Made by a program: the position numbers and the translations under genes. This document shows, one piece after another, positions 4,531-44,586 of a stretch of DNA of 45,810 nucleotides. The notes beneath the pieces are model-generated. The model was given only the letters and a program-made list of their open reading frames with translations. It was not told where the DNA came from and did no database searches. The first letter of the stretch is position 1. Each line of letters begins with the position of its first letter. The stretch spans positions 1 to 45,810 of the forward strand of contig ONTV01000001.1 in NCBI GenBank assembly GCA_900320855.1, given 5' to 3'. This stretch comes from an uncultured Lentisphaerota bacterium (GTDB taxonomy: Bacteria > Verrucomicrobiota > Kiritimatiellia > RFP12 > UBA1067).

Positions 4531-4593
4531 TGAAATCTGAAATCTGAAATCTGGAATCTGAAATCCGAAATTTGAAATCTCAAATTTGAAATT
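4531..4593 (+). repeat. Heptamer tandem array, 9 units (TGAAATC x3, TGGAATC, TGAAATC, CGAAATT, TGAAATC, TCAAATT, TGAAATT)
   Basis: Read directly. It fills the glgP-proS spacer and ends 13 nt before the proS ATG. The start region itself (TGAAATG, 4608-4614) resembles a unit. Confidence 0.9.
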
Positions 4594-4606: not shown

Positions 4607-6322
4607 ATGAAATGGACTAAATCGCTCATCCAGACGCTCCGGGAGAATCCCGGCGACGCCGAAATCGACTCCCACAAGCTCATGATCCGCGCCGGCCTCA
4701 TGAAGAAGGTCGCGGGCGGCCTCTACTCCTACCTGCCGCTCGGCATGCGCGTTCTGAACAAGGTCACGAACATCGTCCGCGAGGAGATGGACCGCGCGGG
4801 CGCGCTGGAGATCGTCCTGCCGATCCTCCAGCCGGCCGAGCTCTGGGAGACGTCGGGCCGCTGGGAGGCGATGGGCCCCGGCATGTTCCGCCTGAAGGAC
4901 CGCGCGGCGCACGACTACGCGCTCTCGCCGACGGCCGAGGAGGTCGTGACGGACGTCGTCAACGGCGTCGTCTCCTCCTACCGCCAGCTGCCCGTCACGG
5001 TCTACCAGATCCAGTGGAAGTTCCGCGACGAGATCCGTCCGCGCTTCGGCCTCATGCGCTCGAAGGAGTTCCTGATGAAGGACGCCTACTCGTTCGACAC
5101 GTCGCTGGAGGCGGCGGACGCGAGCTACAAGGCGATGTTCGACGCCTACACGCGCGTCTTCGCGCGCTGCGGGCTCAAGGCGTATCCGGTCGAGGCCGAC
5201 ACGGGCGACATCGGCGGCAAGTTCAGCCACGAGTTCCACGTGCTCGCCGACGCGGGCGAGGACGGCATCGCGTTCTGCGACGGCTGCGGCTACGCGGCGA
5301 ACCTGGAGAAGGCGGAGCGGCAAATAATCGAATCGCCGAATGGTCGAATGGTCGAATGCGGGCCGTGCTTCCCCGCGCCGACGCCCGCGAAGTCGATTGA
5401 GGAGATGGTCAAGTTCTTCGGCGTGCCCGCGACGAAGATGGTCAAGACGCTCGTCTACGTCGCGGACGGCAAGCCCGTCCTCTTCTGCGTGCGCGGCGAC
5501 CGCGACCTGAACGAGGTGAAGGCGAAGCATCTCGTCGGGGCGAAGAAGTCCGCGCTCGCCGACTTCGAGACCGTGCAGAAGGTGACGGGCGCGCCCGTCG
5601 GCTACGCGGGCCCGGTCAAGCCGGCGGCGGACGTGCCGATCTACGCCGACCTCGACCTCAAGGGCGCGAAGGGCATGATCACCGGCGGCAACCTGCCGGA
5701 CGAGGTTGACCTCAACGACGTCGACTTCGACCGCGACTGCACGATCGCCGGCTACGCCGACCTCGTGGTCGTCCGCGACGGCGACGTCTGCCCGCACTGC
5801 GGCAAGCCGCTCGTCATCAAGCGCGGCATCGAGGTCGGGCACGTCTTCAAGCTCGGCACGAAGTACACGGACGCCTTCAAGGCGACGTTCAAGAACGCGG
5901 AGCTGAAGGAGAACGTCATGGTGATGGGCTGCTACGGCATCGGCGTCTCGCGCACCGTGCAGGCCGTCATCGAGCAGTGCCACGACAAGGACGGCATCGT
6001 CTGGCCCGCGTCCGTCGCGCCGTACGAGGTCGTCATCGAGAACCTCGACCCCGACAAGGCCGAGGTCACGAAGGTCGCGGACGAGCTGGAGGCCGCGCTG
6101 GAGGCGAAGGGCGTGGACGTGATCGTCGACGACCGCGCGGAGCGTCCCGGCGTCAAGTTCAAGGACGCCGACCTCATTGGCTTCCCTGTGCGCGTCGTCG
6201 TCGGCGCGAAGGGGCTGGCGAACGGCGGCGTCGAGGTGAAGCGCCGCTGCGAGGACAAGTCGCAGACGAAGGTCGTGCCGCCGGCCGAGGCCGTCGCGGC
6301 GATTCTCGCCGCGCGCGGCTGA
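4607..6322 (+). CDS. proS: Prolyl-tRNA synthetase, bacterial type with editing insertion
   Basis: 571 aa. MKWTKSLIQTLRENPGDAEIDSHKLMIRAGLMKK, class II motifs, and an INS domain between motifs 2 and 3. Confidence 0.95.
   Translation: MKWTKSLIQTLRENPGDAEIDSHKLMIRAGLMKKVAGGLYSYLPLGMRVLNKVTNIVREEMDRAGALEIVLPILQPAELWETSGRWEAMGPGMFRLKDRAAHDYALSPTAEEVVTDVVNGVVSSYRQLPVTVYQIQWKFRDEIRPRFGLMRSKEFLMKDAYSFDTSLEAADASYKAMFDAYTRVFARCGLKAYPVEADTGDIGGKFSHEFHVLADAGEDGIAFCDGCGYAANLEKAERQIIESPNGRMVECGPCFPAPTPAKSIEEMVKFFGVPATKMVKTLVYVADGKPVLFCVRGDRDLNEVKAKHLVGAKKSALADFETVQKVTGAPVGYAGPVKPAADVPIYADLDLKGAKGMITGGNLPDEVDLNDVDFDRDCTIAGYADLVVVRDGDVCPHCGKPLVIKRGIEVGHVFKLGTKYTDAFKATFKNAELKENVMVMGCYGIGVSRTVQAVIEQCHDKDGIVWPASVAPYEVVIENLDPDKAEVTKVADELEAALEAKGVDVIVDDRAERPGVKFKDADLIGFPVRVVVGAKGLANGGVEVKRRCEDKSQTKVVPPAEAVAAILAARG
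5322..5359 (+). repeat. Octamer array inside proS: AAATAA + TCGAATCG CCGAATGG TCGAATGG TCGAATGC
   Basis: Read directly. It translates in frame as QIIESPNGRMVEC. The unit and the AAATAATCGAAT flank match the array at 30010-30087. Confidence 0.85.
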
Positions 6323-6347
6323 ACGGCCCGCGCGCGCTCCGCCCCCG

Positions 6348-7205
6348 GTGAAGCTGTCCGTCCGAATCAGCCTGGCCGTGCTCGCGCTCTACGCGGGCGC
6401 GGCCGTCTTCGGCGAGGCGCAGTACCGGATCGCGCGGTTCCGGGACGTGACGCCAGCCTACAACCGCGTCGCGGCCGAGCAGCGCTTCCTGCCGCCGCTT
6501 GTCCCTGCGCCGACGACGGGCGAGCGCTATCTGCTGGGCACGGACAGTCTGGGCCGCTCCGTGGCGCTTCGGCTCGTGCAGGGCACGCGCATCGCGTTCC
6601 ACGTCGGCATCGTCACGTCGCTCATCGCGATTCCGCTCGGCGTGCTCCTCGGCCTGCTCGGCGGCTATCTGGGCGGAAAGACGGATTCGCTCGTCCTCTG
6701 GCTTTCGGCGACCGTCGCCTCGATGCCGGGGCTGCTCTTCATTTTGGCGATCTCGCTCGTCGTCGGGCAGGGGCTCTTGGGCATCTACCTGGGCATTGGC
6801 CTCACGACCTGGGTCGGCACGTGCCGGACAATCCGCGCGGAGGTGATGAAGCACCGGGACCGCGCCTACGTGCAGGCGGCGAAGACGCTGGGCTACTCGC
6901 CGCTGCGCATCATGTTCCGGCACATCCTGCCGAACGTCGCGCACATAGTCCTCATCCAGTTCTCGATCCGTTTTCCGTCCGCCGTCTCGACGGAGGTCTT
7001 CATCAGCTTCCTTGGCATCGGCGTGCAGGGCGAGCCGAGCTGGGGAATCATGATCAACAACGCGCGGCTCCGGCTCTGGCAGGGCGTCTGGTGGGAGATG
7101 ACGTTCACGACGCTGGCGATTTTCTTCCTGGTGCTGGTCTTCAACCACCTCGCCGACGCCCTGCGCGACCGTCTCGACCCCGCGCTCCGCGCCGAACGGG
7201 GGTGA
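6348..7205 (+). CDS. ABC transporter permease, OppC/DppC (BPD_transp_1) type
   Basis: 285 aa with a GTG start. LLGTDSLGRSVALRLVQG and an EAA-like loop (AYVQAAKTLGYSPLRIMFRHILPN) are present. No OppB/D/F or binding protein is adjacent. Confidence 0.8.
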   Translation: MKLSVRISLAVLALYAGAAVFGEAQYRIARFRDVTPAYNRVAAEQRFLPPLVPAPTTGERYLLGTDSLGRSVALRLVQGTRIAFHVGIVTSLIAIPLGVLLGLLGGYLGGKTDSLVLWLSATVASMPGLLFILAISLVVGQGLLGIYLGIGLTTWVGTCRTIRAEVMKHRDRAYVQAAKTLGYSPLRIMFRHILPNVAHIVLIQFSIRFPSAVSTEVFISFLGIGVQGEPSWGIMINNARLRLWQGVWWEMTFTTLAIFFLVLVFNHLADALRDRLDPALRAERG

Positions 7206-8550: not shown

Positions 8551-9783
8551 ATGGGCATGAGCGAAGACGTCAAGGCATATGTCCGGGCGCGGGCGCAGCG
8601 CGCGCGCGCCGCCGCCGGCGAACTGGTGCGGCTTTCGGCGTGCGAGAAGAACGCCGCGCTGGAGCGGGTCGCCGCCGCGCTCGAATCGCGGCGCGGCGAG
8701 ATCGCGGCCGCGAACGCGTGCGACGTCGCGCAGGCGAAGGCGGCGGCACTCGCGGAGGCGCTGGTCGATCGTCTGACGCTGACCGAGTCGCGCTTCGACG
8801 CAATGGTCGCGGGCGTCCGCACGGTGGCGGCTCTCCCGGATCCCGTCGGCGAGACGCTGGACGTGCGGGAGCGTCCGAGCGGCATCACGATCCGCAAGGT
8901 GCGCGTGCCGTTCGGCGTCGTCGCGGTCGTGTTCGAGAGCCGTCCGAACGTCTTCGTCGATACGGCGGCGCTCTGCCTCAAGACGGGCAACGCCGTCGTC
9001 CTGCGCGGCGGCAAGGAGGCGATCGAAACGAACCGCGCGCTGGCGGCGGCCGTCCGGGACGGCCTGGGCGACTTGGCGGAGGCGGTGCAGTTCATCGACA
9101 TTCTCGACCATGCGGCCGTGACGGAGCTTGTGCGGGCCGTGGGACTCGTCGATGTCGCGATCCCGCGCGGCGGCGAGCGCCTGATCCGCGCGATGTGCGA
9201 GGCGGCGCTCGTGCCGGTGCTGAAGCACTACAAGGGCGTCTGCCACGTCTACGTGGACGACAAGGCCGATCTCGCGATGGCGCTGTCGATCCTCGACAAC
9301 GCGAAGACGCAGCGGCCCGGCGTCTGCAACGCGGCCGAATGCCTGCTCGTCCACGAACGGCTTGCGCCGATCTTCCTGCCGATGGTGCGGGCCTGGGCGG
9401 CGGACAAGGGGGTTTTGCTCCACGAGGGGACGGACGGCGACGCGGCGGTTGACTGGGAGCGGGAGTTCCTGGCGCTGGAGATGAACGTCGGCATCGTCCG
9501 GGACGTCCGCGCGGCGGTCGCGCACATCAACCGCTACGGGTCGCATCACTCCGACTGCATCGTCACGAACGATGCGGCGCGCGCGCGGGAGTTCCTGCGC
9601 GACGTCGATTCGGCGTGCGTCTACCACAACGTCTCGACGCGCTTCACGGACGGCGGCGAGTTCGGCATGGGCGCGGAGATCGGCATCTCGACGGACAAGC
9701 TGCACGCGCGCGGCCCGATGGGGCTGGAGGAGCTGACGACCTACAAGTACCTCGTCACGGGCGACGGGATCGTGAGAAAGTAG
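8551..9783 (+). CDS. proA: Gamma-glutamyl phosphate reductase
   Basis: ORF 8359..9783, trimmed to the ATG at 8551 just after the upstream stop. MGMSEDVKAYVRARAQ..., with the aldehyde dehydrogenase-like NAAECLLVHE and the HHSDCIVT ending typical of ProA. Confidence 0.9.
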   Translation: MGMSEDVKAYVRARAQRARAAAGELVRLSACEKNAALERVAAALESRRGEIAAANACDVAQAKAAALAEALVDRLTLTESRFDAMVAGVRTVAALPDPVGETLDVRERPSGITIRKVRVPFGVVAVVFESRPNVFVDTAALCLKTGNAVVLRGGKEAIETNRALAAAVRDGLGDLAEAVQFIDILDHAAVTELVRAVGLVDVAIPRGGERLIRAMCEAALVPVLKHYKGVCHVYVDDKADLAMALSILDNAKTQRPGVCNAAECLLVHERLAPIFLPMVRAWAADKGVLLHEGTDGDAAVDWEREFLALEMNVGIVRDVRAAVAHINRYGSHHSDCIVTNDAARAREFLRDVDSACVYHNVSTRFTDGGEFGMGAEIGISTDKLHARGPMGLEELTTYKYLVTGDGIVRK

Positions 9784-9811
9784 TAAGGAGAAAGGAGTAA
9801 GGAGTAAGTGA
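9784..9811 (+). repeat. Heptamer array TAAGGAG AAAGGAG TAAGGAG TAAGTGA (three tandem Shine-Dalgarno cores)
   Basis: Read directly between the proA stop (TAG 9781-9783) and the GTG start of the OMP gene (9808). Confidence 0.85.
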
Positions 9812-10326
9812 GGAAGGCCTCATTTTTTCTCGTGTCTCTCGTGACCCTCTCGTCCCTCGCGTCATTTCCGGCCGTTGCCGTCGATGATCCGTCGTCGGCC
9901 CCAGCTTACCTTGGCGCGGCGGGGACGCTGACGTTGCCGCAGGGCGGGTCGCGCCTGCGTCGGTTGGGCGGCGCGGCCGTGCGCGGTGGCGTCTACCTCT
10001 CCGACTTCTGGGCGGTCGAGGGCGACGTCGCGTGGCAGGAGAACGCGGCGGGGCTGGGCGTCGATGCGCTGGTGCACGTGCAGGCCTGGTCGGGCTATGG
10101 CGACCTCTTCGGCTATTCGGCGTTCGATCCGTTCGTCACGGCTGGGGCGCGCGGCTGGCTCGTCTCGGACGGCGACGGGCAGGTCGGGCCGCAGATGGGC
10201 CTGGGCGCGTTCTATCACCTTGACGACAACTGGTCGCTGCGGGCCGAGGCGAACGTGACGCTTGGCGTTGAGACGCGGGTCGAGGCGATCTACACGATTT
10301 CGGTTGGCGTTCAGTATGGCTTTTGA
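9808..10326 (+). CDS. Small outer-membrane beta-barrel protein (OmpW/OprF-N-like porin family)
   Basis: 172 aa. It has a signal peptide MRKASFFLVSLVTLSSLASFPAVA, alternating amphipathic strands, and a C-terminal ...VGVQYGF ending in an aromatic Phe. Confidence 0.7.
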   Translation: MRKASFFLVSLVTLSSLASFPAVAVDDPSSAPAYLGAAGTLTLPQGGSRLRRLGGAAVRGGVYLSDFWAVEGDVAWQENAAGLGVDALVHVQAWSGYGDLFGYSAFDPFVTAGARGWLVSDGDGQVGPQMGLGAFYHLDDNWSLRAEANVTLGVETRVEAIYTISVGVQYGF

Positions 10327-14614: not shown

Positions 14615-15289
14615 ATGAATGTGCGGATAGACGAATCGTGGAAGCGCGTCCTGGCGGACGAGTTCGAGAAGCCGTATTTTGCCACGCTCGTGTCGTTTGT
14701 CCGCACGGCCTACGCGAAGGGCGTCTGCTATCCGCCCGCGAAGTTCATCTTCAACGCCTTCGACCGCACGCCGTTCGACAAGGTGAAGGTCGTCATCCTC
14801 GGGCAGGACCCCTACCACAATCCGCGCCAGGCGCACGGACTTTCGTTCTCCGTGCCGAAGGGCGTCGCCCTGCCGCCGTCGCTCGTGAACATCTACAAGG
14901 AGCTTCAGGACGAGTTCGGCGGCGACTTCCTCTCGCGCGACGGCGACCTCACGGGCTGGGCCGAGCAGGGCGTCCTGCTCCTGAACGCGACGCTGACGGT
15001 CGCGGGCGGCGACTCGTCCATGGCCGGTTCGCACCAGGGGCGCGGGTGGGAGACGTTCACGGACGCCGTCGTGCGCAAGCTGGCCGAGGGGCGGAAGGGG
15101 CTCGTCTATCTCCTTTGGGGCTCCTACGCGCAGCGCAAGGCCGCGTTTGTCGATCGCGCGACGAGCCTTGTCCTCGCGACGGCGCACCCCTCGCCGCTTT
15201 CGGCCTATCGCGGCTTCTTCGGCTGCGGACACTTCAAGGCGTGCAACGACTACCTGGTGGCGCAGGGGAAGGAGCCGATCCAATGGTGA
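14615..15289 (+). CDS. ung: Uracil-DNA glycosylase family 1
   Basis: ORF 14555..15289, trimmed to the ATG at 14615. VKVVILGQDPYH, GLSFSV and HPSPLSA motifs are present. Confidence 0.93.
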   Translation: MNVRIDESWKRVLADEFEKPYFATLVSFVRTAYAKGVCYPPAKFIFNAFDRTPFDKVKVVILGQDPYHNPRQAHGLSFSVPKGVALPPSLVNIYKELQDEFGGDFLSRDGDLTGWAEQGVLLLNATLTVAGGDSSMAGSHQGRGWETFTDAVVRKLAEGRKGLVYLLWGSYAQRKAAFVDRATSLVLATAHPSPLSAYRGFFGCGHFKACNDYLVAQGKEPIQW

Positions 15290-15873
15290 GACGCGGGACG
15301 GCGGCCCTTGTTGCGCCCTATGCGGCCTGGATGGTGTTGATGACCGCGCTGCCGGCGACGGCGGCGATGTACGCCGTGCGTGGCGGCGTGACGGCGGCGC
15401 TCCTCCTGGTCGGCGGCGGGTTGGGGCTTTACCGTCCGACGGCGCGCACGCGGGCCGGTTGGCTGCGTGCGGCGGGCGTCGGCGTGCTGGCGGGGGTCGC
15501 GGTCTTCGCGGTCTGGATCGCGCCCGACGTCCTGTTCTCGTCCGCCGCGCCGTCTGGGCCCTCGCCCTACGCGCCGGAGGTCTGCGGCTGGGGTCTGACG
15601 CTGGCCAAGCTTGCGGCGAGCGCGTGCGTGATTCCGGTCGCGGAAGAGCTTTTCTTTCGGCGGTGGCTCGTCGATTTCGCGGGCTTCTGGTGGATGGTCG
15701 CCCTCTTTGCGGTCGAGCATGGCGAGCGGTGGCACGTCGGGGCGGTGACGGGCGTCGTCTACGGGCTTCTCGCGCGGCGGTTCGGACTGTTCGCGGCGAT
15801 TGTCGCGCATGCTGTCACGAACCTTGTCCTTGGCCTCTACGTCGTCCGTTGCGGCCAGTGGCAGTTCTGGTGA
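15283..15873 (+). CDS. CPBP (CAAX/Abi) family intramembrane glutamic endopeptidase
   Basis: This is the C-terminal part of ORF 14575..15873, from the ATG at 15283 (ATGGTGA overlap with the ung stop). It is polytopic and has the EELFFRRW and HAVTN motifs. Confidence 0.7.
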   Translation: MVRRGTAALVAPYAAWMVLMTALPATAAMYAVRGGVTAALLLVGGGLGLYRPTARTRAGWLRAAGVGVLAGVAVFAVWIAPDVLFSSAAPSGPSPYAPEVCGWGLTLAKLAASACVIPVAEELFFRRWLVDFAGFWWMVALFAVEHGERWHVGAVTGVVYGLLARRFGLFAAIVAHAVTNLVLGLYVVRCGQWQFW

Positions 15874-22937: not shown

Positions 22938-24215
22938 ATGGCCTTTTCGCGCGAAGACGTTTTGAAGTACCACAAGGGCGGCAAGGTGGCGGTCACGCTG
23001 CCGAAGCCGCTCCAGACGAAGGACGACCTGTGCCTGGCCTACACGCCGGGCGTCGCCCACGCGGTGAAGGAGATCGCCGCGAATCCGTCGTCCGTCTACG
23101 ACGTGACGGCGAAGTCGAACCTCGTCGCCGTCGTCTCGGACGGCACGGCGATCCTCGGCCTCGGCGACCTCGGCGCGACGGCGTCGATTCCCGTCATGGA
23201 GGGGAAGGCCGTCCTCTTCAAGAGCTTCGCGGGCGTCGACGCCTGGCCCGTGCCGCTCAATGCCTGCCGCGCCGGCGGGGCGAACGTGGGCAAGACCGAC
23301 CCGGAGCGCGTCATCGCGGCCGTGAAGGCGATTGCGCCGCAGTACGGCGGCATCAACCTGGAGGACATCGCCGCGCCCGCCTGCTTCGAGATCGAGGACC
23401 GGCTTGACGCCGAGCTCGACATTCCCGTCTTCCACGACGACCAGTGGGGCACGGCGGTCATTGCGCTTGCGGGCGTCATGAACTTCGCGACGCTCGCCGG
23501 CAAGGACCTGAAGGTGCTCAAGGTCGTCGTCAACGGCGCGGGCGCGGCGGGCACGCGCATCGCCGACATGCTCAAGGCCGCCGGCGTCGTCGATCTCACG
23601 ATGTTCGACATCCGGGGCGTCCTCGCGACGACGCGCACCGACCTCTCGCGGCAGAACGCCGCCCACGCGCGCGACGTGCCCGAAGACCTGACGCGGCGTG
23701 CGGCCCTCGCGGGGGCGGACGTCTTCATCGGCGTCTCCGCCGCGAACGTCCTGTCGGGCGACGACGTGCGGGCGATGGGCGACTTCCCGGCGATCTTCGC
23801 GATGGCGAACCCCGATCCGGAGATCACGCCGGAGGCGGTCGCGAAGGCGCTCGCCGGGCGTCGGTACGTGATGGTGACGGGGCGCAGCGACTACCCGAAC
23901 CAGATCAACAACGTCCTCGGCTTCCCGTACCTCTTCCGGGGCGCGCTCGACGTGCGCGCGACGACGATCAACACGGCGATGAAGGTCGCGGCGGCCCATG
24001 CGCTCGCCGCGCTCGCGCGCGAGCCGGTGACGGACGAGGTGAAGGCGCTCTATCCGAACGAGACGCTCGAATTCGGGACGGGCTACCTCATTCCGAAGCC
24101 GTTCGACCGCCGTCTGCTCGTCGAGGTCTCGTCCGCCGTCGCGGCGGCGGCGATGGACAGCGGCGTCGCGCGCCAGCGAATCGACCTTGAGGCCTACCGC
24201 GCCGCGCTCGCGTAG
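22938..24215 (+). CDS. NAD(P)-dependent malic enzyme (short form, no PTA domain)
   Basis: 425 aa. LAYTPGVA, VVSDGTAILGLGDLG, PVMEGKAVLFK, GGINLEDI, VVNGAGAAG. Confidence 0.92.
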   Translation: MAFSREDVLKYHKGGKVAVTLPKPLQTKDDLCLAYTPGVAHAVKEIAANPSSVYDVTAKSNLVAVVSDGTAILGLGDLGATASIPVMEGKAVLFKSFAGVDAWPVPLNACRAGGANVGKTDPERVIAAVKAIAPQYGGINLEDIAAPACFEIEDRLDAELDIPVFHDDQWGTAVIALAGVMNFATLAGKDLKVLKVVVNGAGAAGTRIADMLKAAGVVDLTMFDIRGVLATTRTDLSRQNAAHARDVPEDLTRRAALAGADVFIGVSAANVLSGDDVRAMGDFPAIFAMANPDPEITPEAVAKALAGRRYVMVTGRSDYPNQINNVLGFPYLFRGALDVRATTINTAMKVAAAHALAALAREPVTDEVKALYPNETLEFGTGYLIPKPFDRRLLVEVSSAVAAAAMDSGVARQRIDLEAYRAALA

Positions 24216-27206: not shown

Positions 27207-28403
27207 ATGGCAGGCTTGAACGAAACGCCGCGCGCCAACCGCATCCACATCGCGTTCTTCGGGCTGAGGAACGCGGGGAAGTCCACGCTCGTCAACGCCT
27301 TTACCGGACAGGACATTGCCATCGTGAGCGACGTCGCCGGCACGACGACGGACCCCGTTTCGAAGGCGATGGAGATTTTGCCGCTCGGCCCGTGCCTCGT
27401 CACGGACACGGCGGGGCTTGACGACGTCGGAGACCTTGGCGCGATGCGCGTCCGCAAGACGCTGGACGTCCTCGCGACGACGGACATCGCCGTCTGGGTC
27501 ACGGCCGCGTCCGCCGGATCGGGCGACGACGTGCCTGCCGACTTCCGGGCGGCCTGCGCGGCGCGCGCGGTGACGCTGCTCGTCTACCGGCGCGGCGATT
27601 CGGTCGAGGAGCTGAAGCGGAAGATCGCCGCCGTGCGCCTTGAGGACGACACGCCGGGCCTTCTGGACGGAATCGTCTCGGCGGGCGATCGCGTCATCTG
27701 CGTCTGCCCGATCGACGAGTCCGCGCCGAAGGGGCGTCTGATCCTGCCGCAGGTTCAGGTCATCCGCGACTGCCTCGACCGCCACCTCGCGTGCACGGTC
27801 TGCCAGCCGGCGGAGCTGGCGGACTGCCTTGCGTCCGCCGCCGACGCCGCGCGCACGGTCGTCATCACGGACTCGCAGGCGTTCGCCGCCGTCCACCAAA
27901 CCCTCCAAACTTTCCAAACGTCCAAACGCCCCAACATCCAAACATCCAAACATCCAAACGCCCAAACGCCCAAACCCGTCCTCCTCACCTCCTTCTCGAT
28001 TCTCTTCGCGCGGCAGAAGGGCGATCTGGACGCCTATCGCGCGGGGCTCGCGGCGCTGGCGGGGCTGAAGGACGGCGACCGGGTGCTGGTCGCCGAGGGC
28101 TGCACGCACCATCGGCAGTGCAACGACATCGGGACGACGAAGATTCCCAAGGCCTTGGCGAAGCTGACGGGCCGGAAGCTCGACTTCGCCTTTTCGAGCG
28201 GCGGCGGCTTTGCGCTTGCGCCGACGGACGGCGCACGCGTCGCGCTGGTCGTCCACTGCGGCGGCTGCATGCTGACGCGGCGCGAGGTGCTGCGGCGGAT
28301 CGCGGCCTGTCAGGCGGCGGGCGTGCCGATCGTCAACTACGGCCTTCTGCTGGCGGCGGCGAACGGCCTGCGCGCGGCGGACGTGCTGCACAAGGCGGAT
28401 TGA
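27207..28403 (+). CDS. hydF: [FeFe]-hydrogenase maturation GTPase HydF
   Basis: NRIHIAFFGLRNAGKSTLVNAF (G1), DVAGTTTDP, DTAGLDD (G3), and the C-terminal FeS ligand pattern EGCTHH...VHCGGC. The interdomain loop carries the repeat at 27894-27975. Confidence 0.85.
   Translation: MAGLNETPRANRIHIAFFGLRNAGKSTLVNAFTGQDIAIVSDVAGTTTDPVSKAMEILPLGPCLVTDTAGLDDVGDLGAMRVRKTLDVLATTDIAVWVTAASAGSGDDVPADFRAACAARAVTLLVYRRGDSVEELKRKIAAVRLEDDTPGLLDGIVSAGDRVICVCPIDESAPKGRLILPQVQVIRDCLDRHLACTVCQPAELADCLASAADAARTVVITDSQAFAAVHQTLQTFQTSKRPNIQTSKHPNAQTPKPVLLTSFSILFARQKGDLDAYRAGLAALAGLKDGDRVLVAEGCTHHRQCNDIGTTKIPKALAKLTGRKLDFAFSSGGGFALAPTDGARVALVVHCGGCMLTRREVLRRIAACQAAGVPIVNYGLLLAAANGLRAADVLHKAD
27894..27975 (+). repeat. 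Octamer-period array (about 10 units ending in CCAAAC; core ATCCAAAC x3, GCCCAAAC x2) in frame inside hydF
   Basis: Read directly. The units are CACCAAAC CCTCCAAAC TTTCCAAAC GTCCAAAC GCCCCAAC ATCCAAAC x3 GCCCAAAC x2. It translates as QTLQTFQTSKRPNIQTSKHPNAQTPKP. Confidence 0.85.
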
Positions 28404-28417
28404 CCGTGCTCGCGCGA

Positions 28418-28429
28418 TTTTGGTATACT
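28418..28429 (+). promoter_or_regulatory. Extended -10 promoter TTTTGGTATACT
   Basis: 74 nt upstream of the rplY ATG. There is one mismatch in the hexamer. Confidence 0.55.
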
Positions 28430-29592: not shown

Positions 29593-30009
29593 ATGGCGTC
29601 TTTCAACAAAGTGATCCTGATGGGCAACCTCACGCGTGACCCGGACGTGCGCGTGACCGGGACGAGCGGCATGAAGGTCGCGCGGCTTGGTCTCGCCGTC
29701 AACGAGCGCCGGAAGGACCGCAACGGCAACGTGCAGGACTTCCCCGTGTTCGTCGACGTCGACGCCTGGGACAAGCTGGCCGAGCTTTGCGGGCAGTACC
29801 TTTCGAAGGGAAGCTCCATTCTCGTCGATGGGCGTCTTCAGATGGACACCTGGGAAAAGGACGGCGTCAAGCACCAGAAGCTCAAGGTTCGCGCGAGCAC
29901 GATCAAGTTCCTGCCGAAGGGCGACCGCCTTGCGGGCGGCCCGAAGCCCGTCGTGGAGCAGACCGCGCCCGAAACGGCCGAGAGCGATCCCGCCGACATA
30001 CCGTTCTGA
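29593..30009 (+). CDS. ssb: Single-stranded DNA-binding protein
   Basis: ORF 29464..30009, trimmed to the ATG at 29593. MASFNKVILMGNLTRDPDVR, with the acidic tip ...DPADIPF. Confidence 0.93.
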   Translation: MASFNKVILMGNLTRDPDVRVTGTSGMKVARLGLAVNERRKDRNGNVQDFPVFVDVDAWDKLAELCGQYLSKGSSILVDGRLQMDTWEKDGVKHQKLKVRASTIKFLPKGDRLAGGPKPVVEQTAPETAESDPADIPF

Positions 30010-30087
30010 AAATAATCGAATGGTCGAATGTTCGAATGATCGAATGGTCGAATGATCGGATGGTCAACGGACAGTAAGATCGAATCG
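30010..30087 (+). repeat. Octamer array: AAATAA + TCGAATGG TCGAATGT TCGAATGA TCGAATGG TCGAATGA TCGGATGG TCAACGGA, plus an isolated TCGAATCG at 30080-30087
   Basis: Read directly. It starts at the base after the ssb stop and ends 22 nt before the rpsR ATG. Confidence 0.9.
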
Positions 30088-30109
30088 TAAACCTTTAAGG
30101 AAAAACACA

Positions 30110-30340
30110 ATGGCTTTCAAGAAATCCAACAGCTCGGCCGGCGAGGAGTTCGCCGCGAGGAAGCGTCCGCCGCTCCGCAAGGGCGACGCGATCGACGTCA
30201 ACGACATCGAGACGCTCAAGTACTACATCACCGACTACGGCAAGATCCTGCCGGCGCGCATCACCGGCGTGACCTCGCAGCAGCAGCGCCAGATCCGCCA
30301 GGGCGTCAAGCGCGCCCGCAACATGGGGCTCATGGCCTAA
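30110..30340 (+). CDS. rpsR: 30S ribosomal protein S18
   Basis: 76 aa. [41 protein letters not shown]. Confidence 0.95.
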   Translation: [76 protein letters not shown]

Positions 30341-30830: not shown

Positions 30831-32656
30831 CCAAGCTCGAGGAAAAATGGAAACTCACGCGGGAGACGGTCGGCAACGGCCGTCTCTCCGTAATCATGCC
30901 CCTTTACCGCCTCGCCGCCGAGGCCGAGGGGAATCTGCGCGCCGTCGCCGCGCTCTTCGAGCGGCATGGCGTCGAGGCGGAGCTCGTTCCGGTCGATGAC
31001 GGCAGCGGCGACGGCACGGCGGAGATCCTGCGCGGCATCCGGCTGGACGGCTTTTCGCACGTCACGCTGAAGAGCGTGGTCTGTCCGCGCAACGGCGGCA
31101 AGGGGGCGGCGCTCCGCGCGGGCTTCGAGGCGTCGAGCGGGCGCTACGTGCTTCTGCTTGACGGCGACCTGGACATCAATCCGCAGCAGACGCCGCACTT
31201 CTTCGAGCAGCTGGTCATCCGCGCGGCCGACATCGTCGTCGGCTCCAAGCGCCATCCGAAGTCCGTCGTGCAGTACCCGTGGCACCGACGGCTCGCGAGC
31301 GTCTGCTATTTCGCGTTCGTGCGCCTGGCGTTCGGGCTTCGGATCACCGACACGCAGACGGGCATGAAGCTCTTCAAGCGGGAGGTCCTCGGCCCGGCAC
31401 TCGACCGGATGCTCGTCAAGACCTACGCCTTTGACCTCGAGGTTCTCGCCATTGCCGCGCAGCGGGGCGCGAAGATCGTCGAGGCGCCCGTCGTCATCCG
31501 CTTCGGCGACAAGTTCGGTGCGCTGCGGGCGGAGACCGTCCGGCGGATGATGCTGGACACGCTGGCCGTCTTCTACCGGCGGCGGATTCTCGACTACTAT
31601 TCGAAATGCCTCGTTCCGCCGAAGCTCGACCGTGCGCCGCTCGTCTCGGTCGTGATCGCCTGCCCGAAGACGAGCTGGATGCTGGACGAGTGCCTGGACG
31701 CCCTTCGGGGGCAGTCGTACGCGAACTGGGAGGCGATTGTCCTGCCGGACGCGGCGGAGGGGGGGCGGACGGCGGACGCGGGGCGCGTTCGCTTTCTCCC
31801 GACGGGAAAGGTGCGCCCCGCCGAAAAGCGCAACCTCGGCATTCGCGCGGCGAAGGGCGAGATCGTCGCGTTCATCGACGACGACGCCTACCCGGAGGCG
31901 CATTGGCTCGAATACGCCGTCAAGTACTTCGGCGATCCGGGCATCGGCGCGGTTGGCGGGCCGGGCGTGACGCCGCCCGGCGACGTGCGCCTGGCCCGGC
32001 TGGGCGGCCGCGTCTACGAAAGCCGCCTCGTCTCCGGCACCTACAGCTATCGCTATCGCGCGGGCGGCGTCCGGATGGACGTCGACGACTATCCGAGCTG
32101 CAACCTCCTCGTGCGCAAGGACGTCCTTGACCGGATCGGCGGCTACCGGACTGACTTCTGGCCGGGCGAGGACACGCTTCTCTGCAAGGACATCGTTGAC
32201 CGGAGCTGGAAGCGGATCGTCTACGATCCGTGGGTCATCGTCTACCACCACCGCCGGCCGCTCTTCCGTCCGCACCTGCGCCAGCTCGGCCGCTACGGCT
32301 TTCATCGCGGCTATTTCTGCAAGCGCTTCCCGTCGAACTCGCGGCGGCTGTCGTATTTCATTCCGACGCTCTTCGACGCCTACCTGGCCGGGTTCGCGCT
32401 GCTCGCGGGGCTGGCTGCGCTCGGCTTCGTGCCGAGGCTGGCCGTGGACGTCTGCGGCGCGCCGCTGGCGCTTTACCTCGCGCTTGTGGCGGCCGCGTCG
32501 TTCAGCCTGCACCCCGTGGACGACCTGCTGACGGCCCTTGGCATCGTCCTGAGCCACGTCTGGTACGGCCTCCAGTTCCTGCGCGGGCTCTGCGCGGCGA
32601 AGGCGCCGTGCGAATACATCGGCGCCGACCACGCGGGCGGCGGCAATTTGGTATAA
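30827..32656 (+). CDS. Membrane-associated tandem family-2 glycosyltransferase (two GT2 domains + C-terminal TM segments)
   Basis: 609 aa. Domain 1: LSVIMPLYR..VDDGSGDGT..LLLDGDLD. Domain 2: VSVVIACPK..AIVLPD..FIDDDAYP. The GTG start overlaps the rplI stop, and the start is uncertain. Confidence 0.75.
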   Translation: MTKLEEKWKLTRETVGNGRLSVIMPLYRLAAEAEGNLRAVAALFERHGVEAELVPVDDGSGDGTAEILRGIRLDGFSHVTLKSVVCPRNGGKGAALRAGFEASSGRYVLLLDGDLDINPQQTPHFFEQLVIRAADIVVGSKRHPKSVVQYPWHRRLASVCYFAFVRLAFGLRITDTQTGMKLFKREVLGPALDRMLVKTYAFDLEVLAIAAQRGAKIVEAPVVIRFGDKFGALRAETVRRMMLDTLAVFYRRRILDYYSKCLVPPKLDRAPLVSVVIACPKTSWMLDECLDALRGQSYANWEAIVLPDAAEGGRTADAGRVRFLPTGKVRPAEKRNLGIRAAKGEIVAFIDDDAYPEAHWLEYAVKYFGDPGIGAVGGPGVTPPGDVRLARLGGRVYESRLVSGTYSYRYRAGGVRMDVDDYPSCNLLVRKDVLDRIGGYRTDFWPGEDTLLCKDIVDRSWKRIVYDPWVIVYHHRRPLFRPHLRQLGRYGFHRGYFCKRFPSNSRRLSYFIPTLFDAYLAGFALLAGLAALGFVPRLAVDVCGAPLALYLALVAAASFSLHPVDDLLTALGIVLSHVWYGLQFLRGLCAAKAPCEYIGADHAGGGNLV

Positions 32657-32657
32657 T
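32647..32657 (+). promoter_or_regulatory. Extended -10 promoter TTTGGTATAAT; tyrS appears leaderless
   Basis: TATAAT is at 32652-32657 and the ATG at 32666, leaving an 8-nt gap and no room for an SD. The GT2 stop TAA (32654-32656) lies inside the hexamer. Confidence 0.6.
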
Positions 32658-32665
32658 GTTGCGCT

Positions 32666-44009: not shown

Positions 44010-44539
44010 ACGCGATGACGCTCAAGCAGAAGGCGGTCTTCGCCGTCCTGGCGGTCGTCGGCCTCTACGCCGTCGCCGCGCTCACGTGGTTTCTCTCGGC
44101 GGAGTCGGCGTGGAAGAAGGCGGCGCGGCGCTACGAGCAGGCGAAGGCGACGTACGCGAAGGAGGAGCGGCTCATCGCCGACAAGGCGAAGTGGGACGCG
44201 GCCTACGAGGCCGAGAAGGCCGCGATGCCGACGTTCGCGGCGGGCCGGGCGACGGACACGACGTGGCTGCAGAAGATGGGCGAGGTCGCGAACCGGAACC
44301 TCATCCAGATCTCGCAGCGCGGCACGCAGAAGGAGAAGCTTGAGATCGACGACGTGACGGTGCTGCCGATCGACGCGAGCTGGGAGGGCTCGCTGGAGGC
44401 GCTCGTCAAGTTCCTCTACGAGCTGGAGAATTCGAAGGAAGGGCTTTTCGACGTCGCCGAGCTGGACTTCAAGCCGAGCGCGAAGAAGGGCTATCTGCGC
44501 GGGACGTTCACGCTCAACTGCGCGTACATGAGGGAGTAG
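44006..44539 (+). CDS. PilO/GspM-like assembly protein
   Basis: 177 aa. An N-terminal TM is followed by a coiled coil, then ...[41 protein letters not shown], the PilO-type fold pattern. The start overlaps the upstream stop (ATGA). Confidence 0.55.
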
Positions 44540-44586
44540 GTGGAAAGGTGGAAGGGCGGAAAGGTGGAAAAGTAAAGAAAGGGAAT
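44539..44586 (+). repeat. Octamer array GGTGGAAA GGTGGAAG GGCGGAAA GGTGGAAA, decaying into AGTAAAGA AAGGGAAT
   Basis: Read directly. It starts at the last base of the pilO-like stop and ends 2 nt before the ATG at 44589. Confidence 0.85.

Follow-up and report, generated by a model that had tools for sequence, protein, structure and literature searches.

Small dispersed non-coding elements of bacterial genomes, such as the repetitive extragenic palindromic sequences and bacterial interspersed mosaic elements (REP/BIME) and the miniature inverted-repeat transposable elements (MITEs), often lie after stop codons within operons and have conserved ends; what defines REPs and MITEs is a palindrome or terminal inverted repeats, with target-site duplications as a further criterion for MITEs. 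The cyanobacterial short tandemly repeated repetitive (STRR) heptanucleotides, reportedly described by Mazel et al. in 1990, are said to form dispersed families of short tandem repeats between the genes of one lineage. Long simple sequence repeats (SSRs) with units of 5–11 nucleotides (nt) occur in abundance in scattered lineages of bacteria, and slippage is considered responsible for them (Mrazek, Guo and Shah 2007, in the summary given by PMC4679880). Direct repeats of the heptamer TAACTGA occur in marine Beggiatoaceae, Cyanobacteria and some Bacteroidetes (MacGregor 2015, PMC4679880), and Geobacter metallireducens carries families of four to five tandem 7–8 nt units, both within and between genes (PMC2700814). 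Here we describe a family of octamer arrays with the unit TCGAATGN, as seen in a 45,810 nt stretch of DNA (contig ONTV01000001.1 of assembly GCA_900320855.1; hereafter the window) from an uncultured Lentisphaerota bacterium of the Kiritimatiellia, where one array directly follows ssb, upstream of rpsR, and a second one lies inside proS.

Our reading, to which we give a probability of about 0.6, is that the ssb array represents a single locus within a family of octamer microsatellites that is dispersed, polar and neutral and evolves by slippage. The original prediction had noticed an octamer array right after the ssb stop codon, and a 12-mer with the same unit in proS, and both are confirmed by the sequence and by Tandem Repeats Finder (period 8, with 6.2 copies at 30016–30065 and 3.9 copies at 5328–5358). 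The two arrays have 40–43% G+C, compared with 68% for the window, in which nearly all genes are on the + strand. Directly 3' of the ssb TGA stands AAATAAT (30010–30016); the head AAAATAAT takes in the last base of the stop codon and adds a second in-frame stop (TAA), and the array as a whole stops all three reading frames downstream of ssb. The core units come in the order CGAATGGT, CGAATGTT, CGAATGAT, CGAATGGT, CGAATGAT and CGGATGGT (30017–30064), which in the phase of the original prediction is TCGAATGG/T/A/G/A, then TCGGATGG (Table 1). The spacer between ssb and rpsR measures 100 nt, and Pfam labels on identical metagenome contigs give the gene order L25, S6, SSB, S18, L9.

The 12-mer AAATAATCGAAT is found exactly twice in the window, compared with 0.01 expected occurrences, and none of 100 shuffles reaches two. 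This count contradicts the idea that the two arrays arose by independent local slippage and resemble each other by coincidence, as does the presence of this head and unit at dozens of loci among relatives; the evolutionary histories of the sites do differ, and arrays of arbitrary octamers do exist at a low base rate, but a coincidence of this kind is very improbable. The 12-mer had been regarded as a non-repeat flank shared by the two copies. Its identity holds but its non-repeat status does not, since in the phase AATNNTCG 11 of the 12 shared bases belong to the repeat (the first unit AATAATCG plus AAT), and the true non-repeat flank is a single A. It is also no evidence that one of the two loci was copied from the other: the 12-mer is the standard head of the family, so that any two members may well have it in common, with a fair chance, and need not be mutual copies. 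A direct copy between the two loci was rejected on this ground and because their histories differ, the ssb array being inherited within a clade and the proS array present in some relatives only.

A search for further copies had been suggested with the original prediction, and it was clearly positive. In a scan of one genome per GTDB species, with three consecutive units required, more than 105 matching stretches were found, with several arrays per genome in many metagenome-assembled genomes (MAGs). Six Kiritimatiellia-type MAGs, with 201 kb in all, contain 25 exact copies of the 12-mer. Among the matches listed are Kiritimatiellia-type MAGs (some labelled Lentisphaeraceae or Verrucomicrobia UBA1629), Planctomycetota, Saprospiraceae and other Bacteroidota. 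Since arrays of arbitrary octamers have a measurable base rate, as permuted control octamers in viral contigs demonstrate, this breadth across phyla should not be over-read, and the many arrays per genome in particular lineages are the stronger signal. The closest genome records to the window are MAGs labelled uncultured Kiritimatiellaeota from human gut (86% nucleotide identity over 4 kb for L113), and contigs identical to it were found in rumen and gut metagenomes.

The arrays of this family have a direction and a defined beginning. Across 30 Kiritimatiellia-type loci, with 39 arrays of at least three perfect-core units, the unit ahead of the first perfect one has the consensus GAAATAAT (its best-conserved positions agree in 38, 37, 35 and 34 of the 39) and the unit past the last perfect one has the consensus CGAATGGG, the arrays fading out towards 3'. 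Of 56 arrays, 38 open with AATAATCG, which accounts for about a fifth (~22%) of the later units, and each of the four bases 5' of the array is a purine in 46–55 of the 56. Within the unit, six core positions are conserved, and the one that varies freely is position 7 of CGAATGNT in all arrays; the Planctomycetota arrays have N = C and the same start, purines followed by (G/A)AATG(C/A)T. The form of the family is a purine run, the head GAAATAAT, (CGAATGNT)n and a G-rich fade-out, and it is typical of a host-associated Kiritimatiellia lineage and its relatives. In one MAG (RUG13365; L054, 2440–2620) a complete block, made up of the head, three units and the G-rich tail (GAGAAATAAT CGAATAAT CGAATAAT CGAATGAT CGAAACGGGGGAAGT), recurs in tandem every ~49 nt. 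The Saprospiraceae MAG JALZVK01 (L023, L024, L026, L032, L034, L104 and L110) has CGAATGTT arrays, frequently at contig ends, that are embedded in a conserved repeat of greater length, …CTCGTCAAACTTCATAATT (array) TTCCCTTGTTC…AAATCGTAAAAAAAG…; the octamer is shared, but the element is another and larger one.

The history of the ssb site can be followed in related genomes. A metagenome scan with S18 gave 65 relatives with a readable ssb–rpsR spacer, and in 62 of these it is 24–38 nt long, A-rich and array-free, which bears out the suggestion that the spacer of the window is abnormally long; L156 has a degenerate version of the array. In the three nearest relatives, L119, L120 and L121 (89.5–92.8% nucleotide identity across ssb, rpsR and rplI), the stop codon is immediately followed by the motif, as TGA GAAATGAC CGAATAGA in L119, TGA AAAACGAT CGAATGAC CGAATAGA in L120 and TGA GAAATAAT CGAATGAT CGAATAGT CGAATGAA in L121, and in all three the sequence 3' of the motif aligns with the ancestral spacer. 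The array is thus limited to a clade, with 2, 3 and 4 units in these relatives and 7 in the window. The alignments show that the ancestral spacer was short (24–38 nt) and repeat-free, and the simplest reading is that the ancestor of this small clade gained a two-unit block once, which then expanded in whole units to seven in the species of the window. L119 and L120 share 90% identity at 4-fold degenerate sites and their spacers (39 vs 47 nt) differ by exactly one 8-nt unit, and in a second orthologous pair, L049 and L078, 8 vs 5 units stand between conserved flanks.

Within the species the arrays are stable. In ten conspecific contigs from different samples, with 99.5–99.97% identity to the window, the ssb array has the same length with one single-nucleotide polymorphism (SNP) and the hydF array is unchanged, and a further conspecific contig (L202) has zero indels across the proS array and the (TGAAATC) array upstream of it. 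Copy numbers that shift by whole units at each site, yet stay constant within the species, are in keeping with a modest rate of replication slippage. The original prediction had held that independent slippage would not be sufficient; this stands for the seeding of the same head and unit at separate sites, but not for the change of copy number at each site, for which slippage is the best explanation. Contamination by human satellite or adapter sequence was rejected, as the array has a period of 8, where 5 or 10 would be expected, and recurs unchanged in ten independent assemblies. Contigs with close Ssb homologues are mostly shorter than 2 kb (12 of the 28 blocks for the window's own protein), which is consistent with assemblies breaking at arrays near this operon.

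The copy in proS lies in the peptide QIIESPNGRMVEC, where the array encodes IIESPNGRMVE, in a loop enclosed by two CxxC motifs. The array follows ANLEKAER and precedes a CxxC motif, and the loop is hypervariable in the 120 homologues compared (P0001–P0120). The commonest ProS has 568 amino acids (aa) and an unrelated G+C-rich loop (e.g., GAGGTTGCGGCGGCGGACTTCGCGCCG in L116). In the window and in L118, 36 nt of array stand where the array-free allele has 27 nt; the TCGAATGN-family array of L117 is longer, and other lineages have a different purine-rich repeat (GKKEEGRSEEG) at the same position. Alleles of 571 and 580 aa, a whole-unit difference, were observed, and the copy is in frame in every relative. 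No target-site duplication was found between array-bearing and array-free proS alleles, sequence being replaced instead. Array, array-free and GKKEEG-type alleles of the loop are mixed among ProS proteins that are at least 90% identical, and they match the alleles of more distant clades. Since the states of the loop do not follow the tree of the rest of the protein, this suggests that related Kiritimatiellia species recombine at proS.

A short-unit tandem repeat that occurs both between genes and within a gene could in principle be a contingency (phase-variation) locus, here switching rpsR and rplI, or ProS. However, copy number is identical in the ten assemblies, which come from different samples and diverge by 0.03–0.5% elsewhere, the neighbours ssb, rpsR and proS are essential housekeeping genes and not surface or virulence genes, and the proS copy never leaves its frame. 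It is scarcely credible that the array works as such a switch.

As for the mechanism, we propose that units are gained and lost by replication slippage between the AATG microhomologies bounding every array; slippage between AATG copies 8 nt apart would lead to arrays that begin and end with AATG. New loci would probably be seeded when a short, pre-formed block is copied from an existing array, by template switching or gene conversion and with no transposase. Arrays would then persist where they are harmless, either in an unstructured A/T-rich stretch upstream of the next Shine-Dalgarno sequence or in a surface loop, where the frame is kept and stop-free, and a specific function would not be required. 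The facts that most relatives are array-free, that copy number is unconstrained and that copies lie within coding sequences (CDSs) argue against a required function.

The original prediction favoured a common origin by copying or insertion of a small element, of which one dispersed family with a defined 5' head stands, but a small mobile element is not supported. In its wider form this idea would make the arrays footprints or products of active insertion, head-first into purine-rich sites, by a small non-autonomous mobile element or by a templated unit-adding enzyme (telomerase-like or template-switching). Head, phase and tail are alike at many loci in several genomes, the ssb site started from a 16-nt (two-unit) block that all more distant relatives lack, the proS block takes the place of unrelated sequence, variation is concentrated at one position of the unit, and in RUG13365 the whole head-array-tail block is itself repeated; all of these speak for insertion. 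On the other hand, the aligned copies, whose comparison had been suggested as a way to find target-site features, have no target-site duplication (filled vs empty ssb–rpsR spacers) and no terminal inverted repeats; no inverted repeats flank either window copy, there is no hairpin, and no conserved unique sequence was found beyond the repeat. No associated transposase (e.g., RAYT) was seen in the window gene set, of which the annotation is not exhaustive. Additionally, there were zero new insertions among the ten conspecific assemblies, the unit is not enriched in viral contigs (2 matches vs 5 and 10 for two permuted controls), and arrays bounded by AATG are expected from microhomology-mediated slippage anyway. 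We therefore consider active insertion doubtful. A phage origin was rejected, with only 2 viral contigs matching, below the permuted control units.

Most arrays of the family stand in sense orientation close behind a stop codon, and a few are in frame in tolerant protein loops, like that of ProS. At least 15 of 47 Kiritimatiellia-type arrays start 4–21 nt after the stop codon of a long same-strand open reading frame (ORF; these have high third-position G+C), and in some arrays the TAA or TGA within the head is itself the stop of the upstream ORF. In co-directional spacers, 12 arrays are in sense and 2 in antisense orientation, as assigned by a gene caller based on G+C by codon position, which is crude, and its "inside a gene" calls for unannotated loci were kept out of the conclusions. 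The arrays adjoin the upstream stop at a variable distance from the next start, and the downstream gene retains its own Shine-Dalgarno sequence (AAGGA/GGAGG). In several spacers, two or three types of array form a mosaic. Of 23 Planctomycetota arrays, only 2 adjoin the end of an ORF.

The sense bias and the association with stop codons leave room for a role at the RNA level, as proposed for TAACTGA (PMC4679880). The arrays would then be functional elements of polycistronic mRNAs, an unstructured AU-rich platform with AUG and UGA after the stop codon, which handles terminating ribosomes (insulating or coupling the next cistron) or binds a repeat-recognising protein, as proposed for the Beggiatoaceae TAACTGA repeats. 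Conservation of head and tail, with six core positions of the unit fixed and one free, would agree with this, as would the presence of the array at orthologous sites in several species, its location in a ribosomal-protein operon like some TAACTGA repeats (PMC4679880), and the closing of all three frames after ssb. However, conservation at the ssb site is not above expectation, as 4-fold degenerate sites are still 72–82% identical between these species, which stand too near to each other for conservation to reveal selection; the large majority of relatives do without the array, its copy number runs from 2 to 7 with no apparent optimum, and the copy in the proS CDS is in a place where such a role is impossible. 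Downstream genes do not depend on the arrays for a Shine-Dalgarno sequence, the Planctomycetota arrays seldom lie at ORF ends, and the orientation bias is inseparable from the direction of replication. We regard a functional RNA as possible but improbable.

Searches of the ssb–rpsR spacer itself gave no signal of known kind. No promoter hexamers or intrinsic terminator were found in 30010–30109, a comparison of the spacer with Rfam gave no match even with E allowed up to 1, and no stable fold was predicted for it, its minimum free energy being no better than that of shuffled sequences (z = −0.28). The sole promoter-like site is TTGACC-18 nt-TATACT with a TG extension at 28400–28429, upstream of the L25 gene, which is probably the promoter of the L25-S6-SSB-S18-L9 operon. 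The array as a duplicated translation-initiation context was rejected, as ~70 gene starts in the clade use AAGGA/GGAGG and never CGAATG. Pairing with the 16S 3' tail (UGAUC/UGGUC) and periodic Rho binding (YC) were considered but not relied on; the units are G-rich and C-poor, and those of Planctomycetota have N = C. A CRISPR array, with repeats of 23–50 nt and unique spacers, was also dismissed, the units here being 8 nt and contiguous. A sub-threshold Rfam match to CRISPR-DR20 at 27835–27871, in the hydF-like gene (21.4 bits vs a gathering threshold of 42, E = 0.54), is taken to be chance.

Several points weigh against a slippage-evolved, neutral family. Slippage leaves unexplained why independent sites have a common head and unit, and a single boundary phase. 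The first event at ssb resembles the insertion of a ready-made 16-nt block, and that at proS resembles a replacement of 27 by 36 nt. The 12 vs 2 sense bias and the frequent starts shortly after stop codons could mean an RNA-level role or a strand-specific process, and one fixed variable position of the unit is more orderly than random decay would be. In a further reading, the polar TCGAATGN arrays might not be passive microsatellites but the products or tools of a dedicated system of Kiritimatiellia-type genomes, which Planctomycetota, with their similar head, possibly have as well. Such a system might synthesise DNA reiteratively from a template and so add units head-first to the ends of genes, or it might be an RNA-binding factor that reads the repeat and acts on ribosomes or mRNA right after termination. 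We consider such a system unlikely, and the dispersed microsatellite family remains our preferred reading.

The two arrays of this family are not alone in the window. Tandem Repeats Finder reports six AT-rich arrays of period 7 or 8 with at least 3.9 copies each, and arrays of other periods are only weak-scoring G+C-rich runs (2–6 copies) within genes. Since four further A/T-rich or purine-rich 7–8 nt arrays are present besides those at ssb and proS (Table 1), short-unit arrays are a property of this genome and not of one locus. Arrays of 7–8 nt with unrelated units occupy other spacers as well, and they turn over between relatives.

Table 1. Coordinates of the arrays and of the adjoining genes in the window.
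Feature	Position	Strand	Description
(TGAAATC) x 8.9	4531–4592	+	27% G+C; spacer between glycogen phosphorylase stop and proS ATG
proS CDS	4607–6322	+	571 aa; PF00587, PF04073, PF03129
In-frame family copy in proS	5322–5358	+	AAATAAT (5322–5328), CGAATCGC, CGAATGGT, CGAATGGT, CGAATG
(GAGTAAG/GAGAAAG) x 6	9774–9817	+	Spans aldehyde dehydrogenase stop and start of the next gene
(TCCAAACG) x 9	27904–27975	+	72 nt; in frame in HydF-like GTPase gene (27207–28403)
ssb CDS	29593–30009	+	TGA stop at 30007–30009 abuts array head; PF00436 SSB on identical contigs
Array head AAAATAAT	30009–30016	+	From sequence; family head unit, consensus GAAATAAT (39 arrays)
Six CGAATGNT units	30017–30064	+	Homogeneous core; N = G, T, A, G, A, G; last unit CGGATGGT
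Three degenerate units in phase	30065–30088	+	From sequence; CAACGGAC, AGTAAGAT, CGAATCGT; decayed 3' end, fade-out typical across the family
Ancestral spacer part	30089–30109	+	rpsR Shine-Dalgarno AAGGA at 30097; aligns with short spacers of relatives
rpsR CDS	30110–30340	+	ATG at 30110; PF01084 Ribosomal_S18
(AGGTGGAA) x 4	44538–44570	+	Directly after a TAG stop, 19 nt before next ATG

In place of the (TGAAATC) array upstream of proS, L118 (ProS 93% identical) has a plain 40-nt spacer and L116 has (CACGGATY)3 followed by (TCCAAACC)4. The TCCAAACG array encodes a low-complexity linker (QTFQTSKRPNIQTSKHPNAQTPK) in the HydF-like protein; at the same site the ortholog of L018 has a degenerate 9-nt periodic QAIQAFQAS, and that of L089 an unrelated linker that is 42 nt shorter. 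The TCCAAACG unit family is also seen in L116 upstream of proS, and its complement GTTTGGAN adjoins a TCGAATG array in L018. The gene after the array at 9774–9817 encodes a 172-aa outer-membrane beta-barrel with a GTG start, which the array overlaps, and the array contains four successive AAGGAG sites; the orthologous spacer of L120 (18878–19030) has 153 nt with other 7–8 nt repeats (GAGGNATG-like and GACTTGAA-like). The array at 44538–44570 has a repeated GGTGG, which is Shine-Dalgarno-like.

Repeats of other kinds were observed in the relatives. L121 has (AGTGAAC) x 37 at a contig end (1–260), upstream of a gene, L118 has ~117-nt repeats at 5830–6505 (a 316-nt super-unit is also visible) with inverted 8-nt sub-repeats CACGGAGC and GTCTCCGT, and L119 has 3.7 copies of the 24-nt repeat GGGGTCTGTCCCCACGAATCTTGA at 15266–15350. 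The malic enzyme gene of the window (22938–24215) encodes 425, 428 or 441 aa in conspecific contigs (L001, L004, L006); a repeat effect was rejected here, the cause being SNPs in successive stop codons (TAG/CAG, TGA/GGA). Extended −10 boxes (TGGTATAAT, TGCTATAAT, TGGTACAAT) stand 7–11 nt upstream of ATG at sites with no Shine-Dalgarno sequence, in the window at ~32645–32665 (upstream of tyrS, 32666) and ~24160–24185 (upstream of rhaA), and in relatives at L119 15556, L120 17606 and L121 7114 and 10538; to judge from the sequence, these look like leaderless or near-leaderless transcripts.

STRR, TAACTGA and 5–11 nt SSRs have been known for decades without an accepted origin or function. The TCGAATGN family offers a well-resolved case, with a datable gain in a conserved ribosomal-protein operon and with a stepwise series among sister species (2, 3, 4 and 7 units). 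Also of interest are the conservation of head and tail, the association with stop codons, and the in-frame copies that create new loops in essential enzymes (ProS, and with an array of a different unit the HydF-like GTPase). If it is true that polarity and orientation reflect the mechanism, the family would be a tractable entry to how such repeats are seeded. In practice, arrays of this kind break metagenome assemblies, and they give rise to lineage-specific peptide insertions that annotation pipelines read as ordinary protein.

In comparison with the described systems, the family shares with STRR the dispersed, intergenic short tandem repeats of one lineage, although units and lineage are different, and to our knowledge neither a polar head nor an association with stop codons is known for STRR. 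Unlike REPs and MITEs, the TCGAATGN arrays show neither palindromes or inverted repeats nor target-site duplications. The Geobacter sites have a fixed copy number, are paired on opposite strands and were read as regulator binding sites (PMC2700814), whereas the TCGAATGN arrays vary in copy number and are single-stranded in orientation. With the long SSRs, as far as these are summarised in PMC4679880, the arrays have in common head-to-tail units of 7–8 nt, a length beyond chance, a mostly non-coding location, a patchy distribution over lineages and slippage as the proposed origin, and also the rarity inside genes of units that are not a multiple of three; measured against the same summary, they differ in that one unit forms a dispersed family with conserved head and tail, which is A/T-rich in a 68% G+C genome, starts at stop codons and is stable within the species.

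The nearest described analogue is the TAACTGA repeats. In both cases, one short unit is repeated in tandem at many intergenic sites and is oriented with the genes, some copies overlap the upstream stop codon, some belong to ribosomal-protein operons, a few are found at tolerant positions of ORFs, stops are present in all frames, and the phyletic distribution is patchy (PMC4679880). The TCGAATGN unit differs in sequence, has 8 nt and not 7, and its arrays have a conserved head unit; TAACTGA repeats are located just upstream of starts and often replace the Shine-Dalgarno sequence (PMC4679880), whereas the TCGAATGN arrays abut the upstream stop and the Shine-Dalgarno sequence is kept. In the literature, no description of the TCGAATGN family or of Kiritimatiellia repeats was found. 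The class of short-unit bacterial repeats is already known, and the TCGAATGN family itself is a new member of it.

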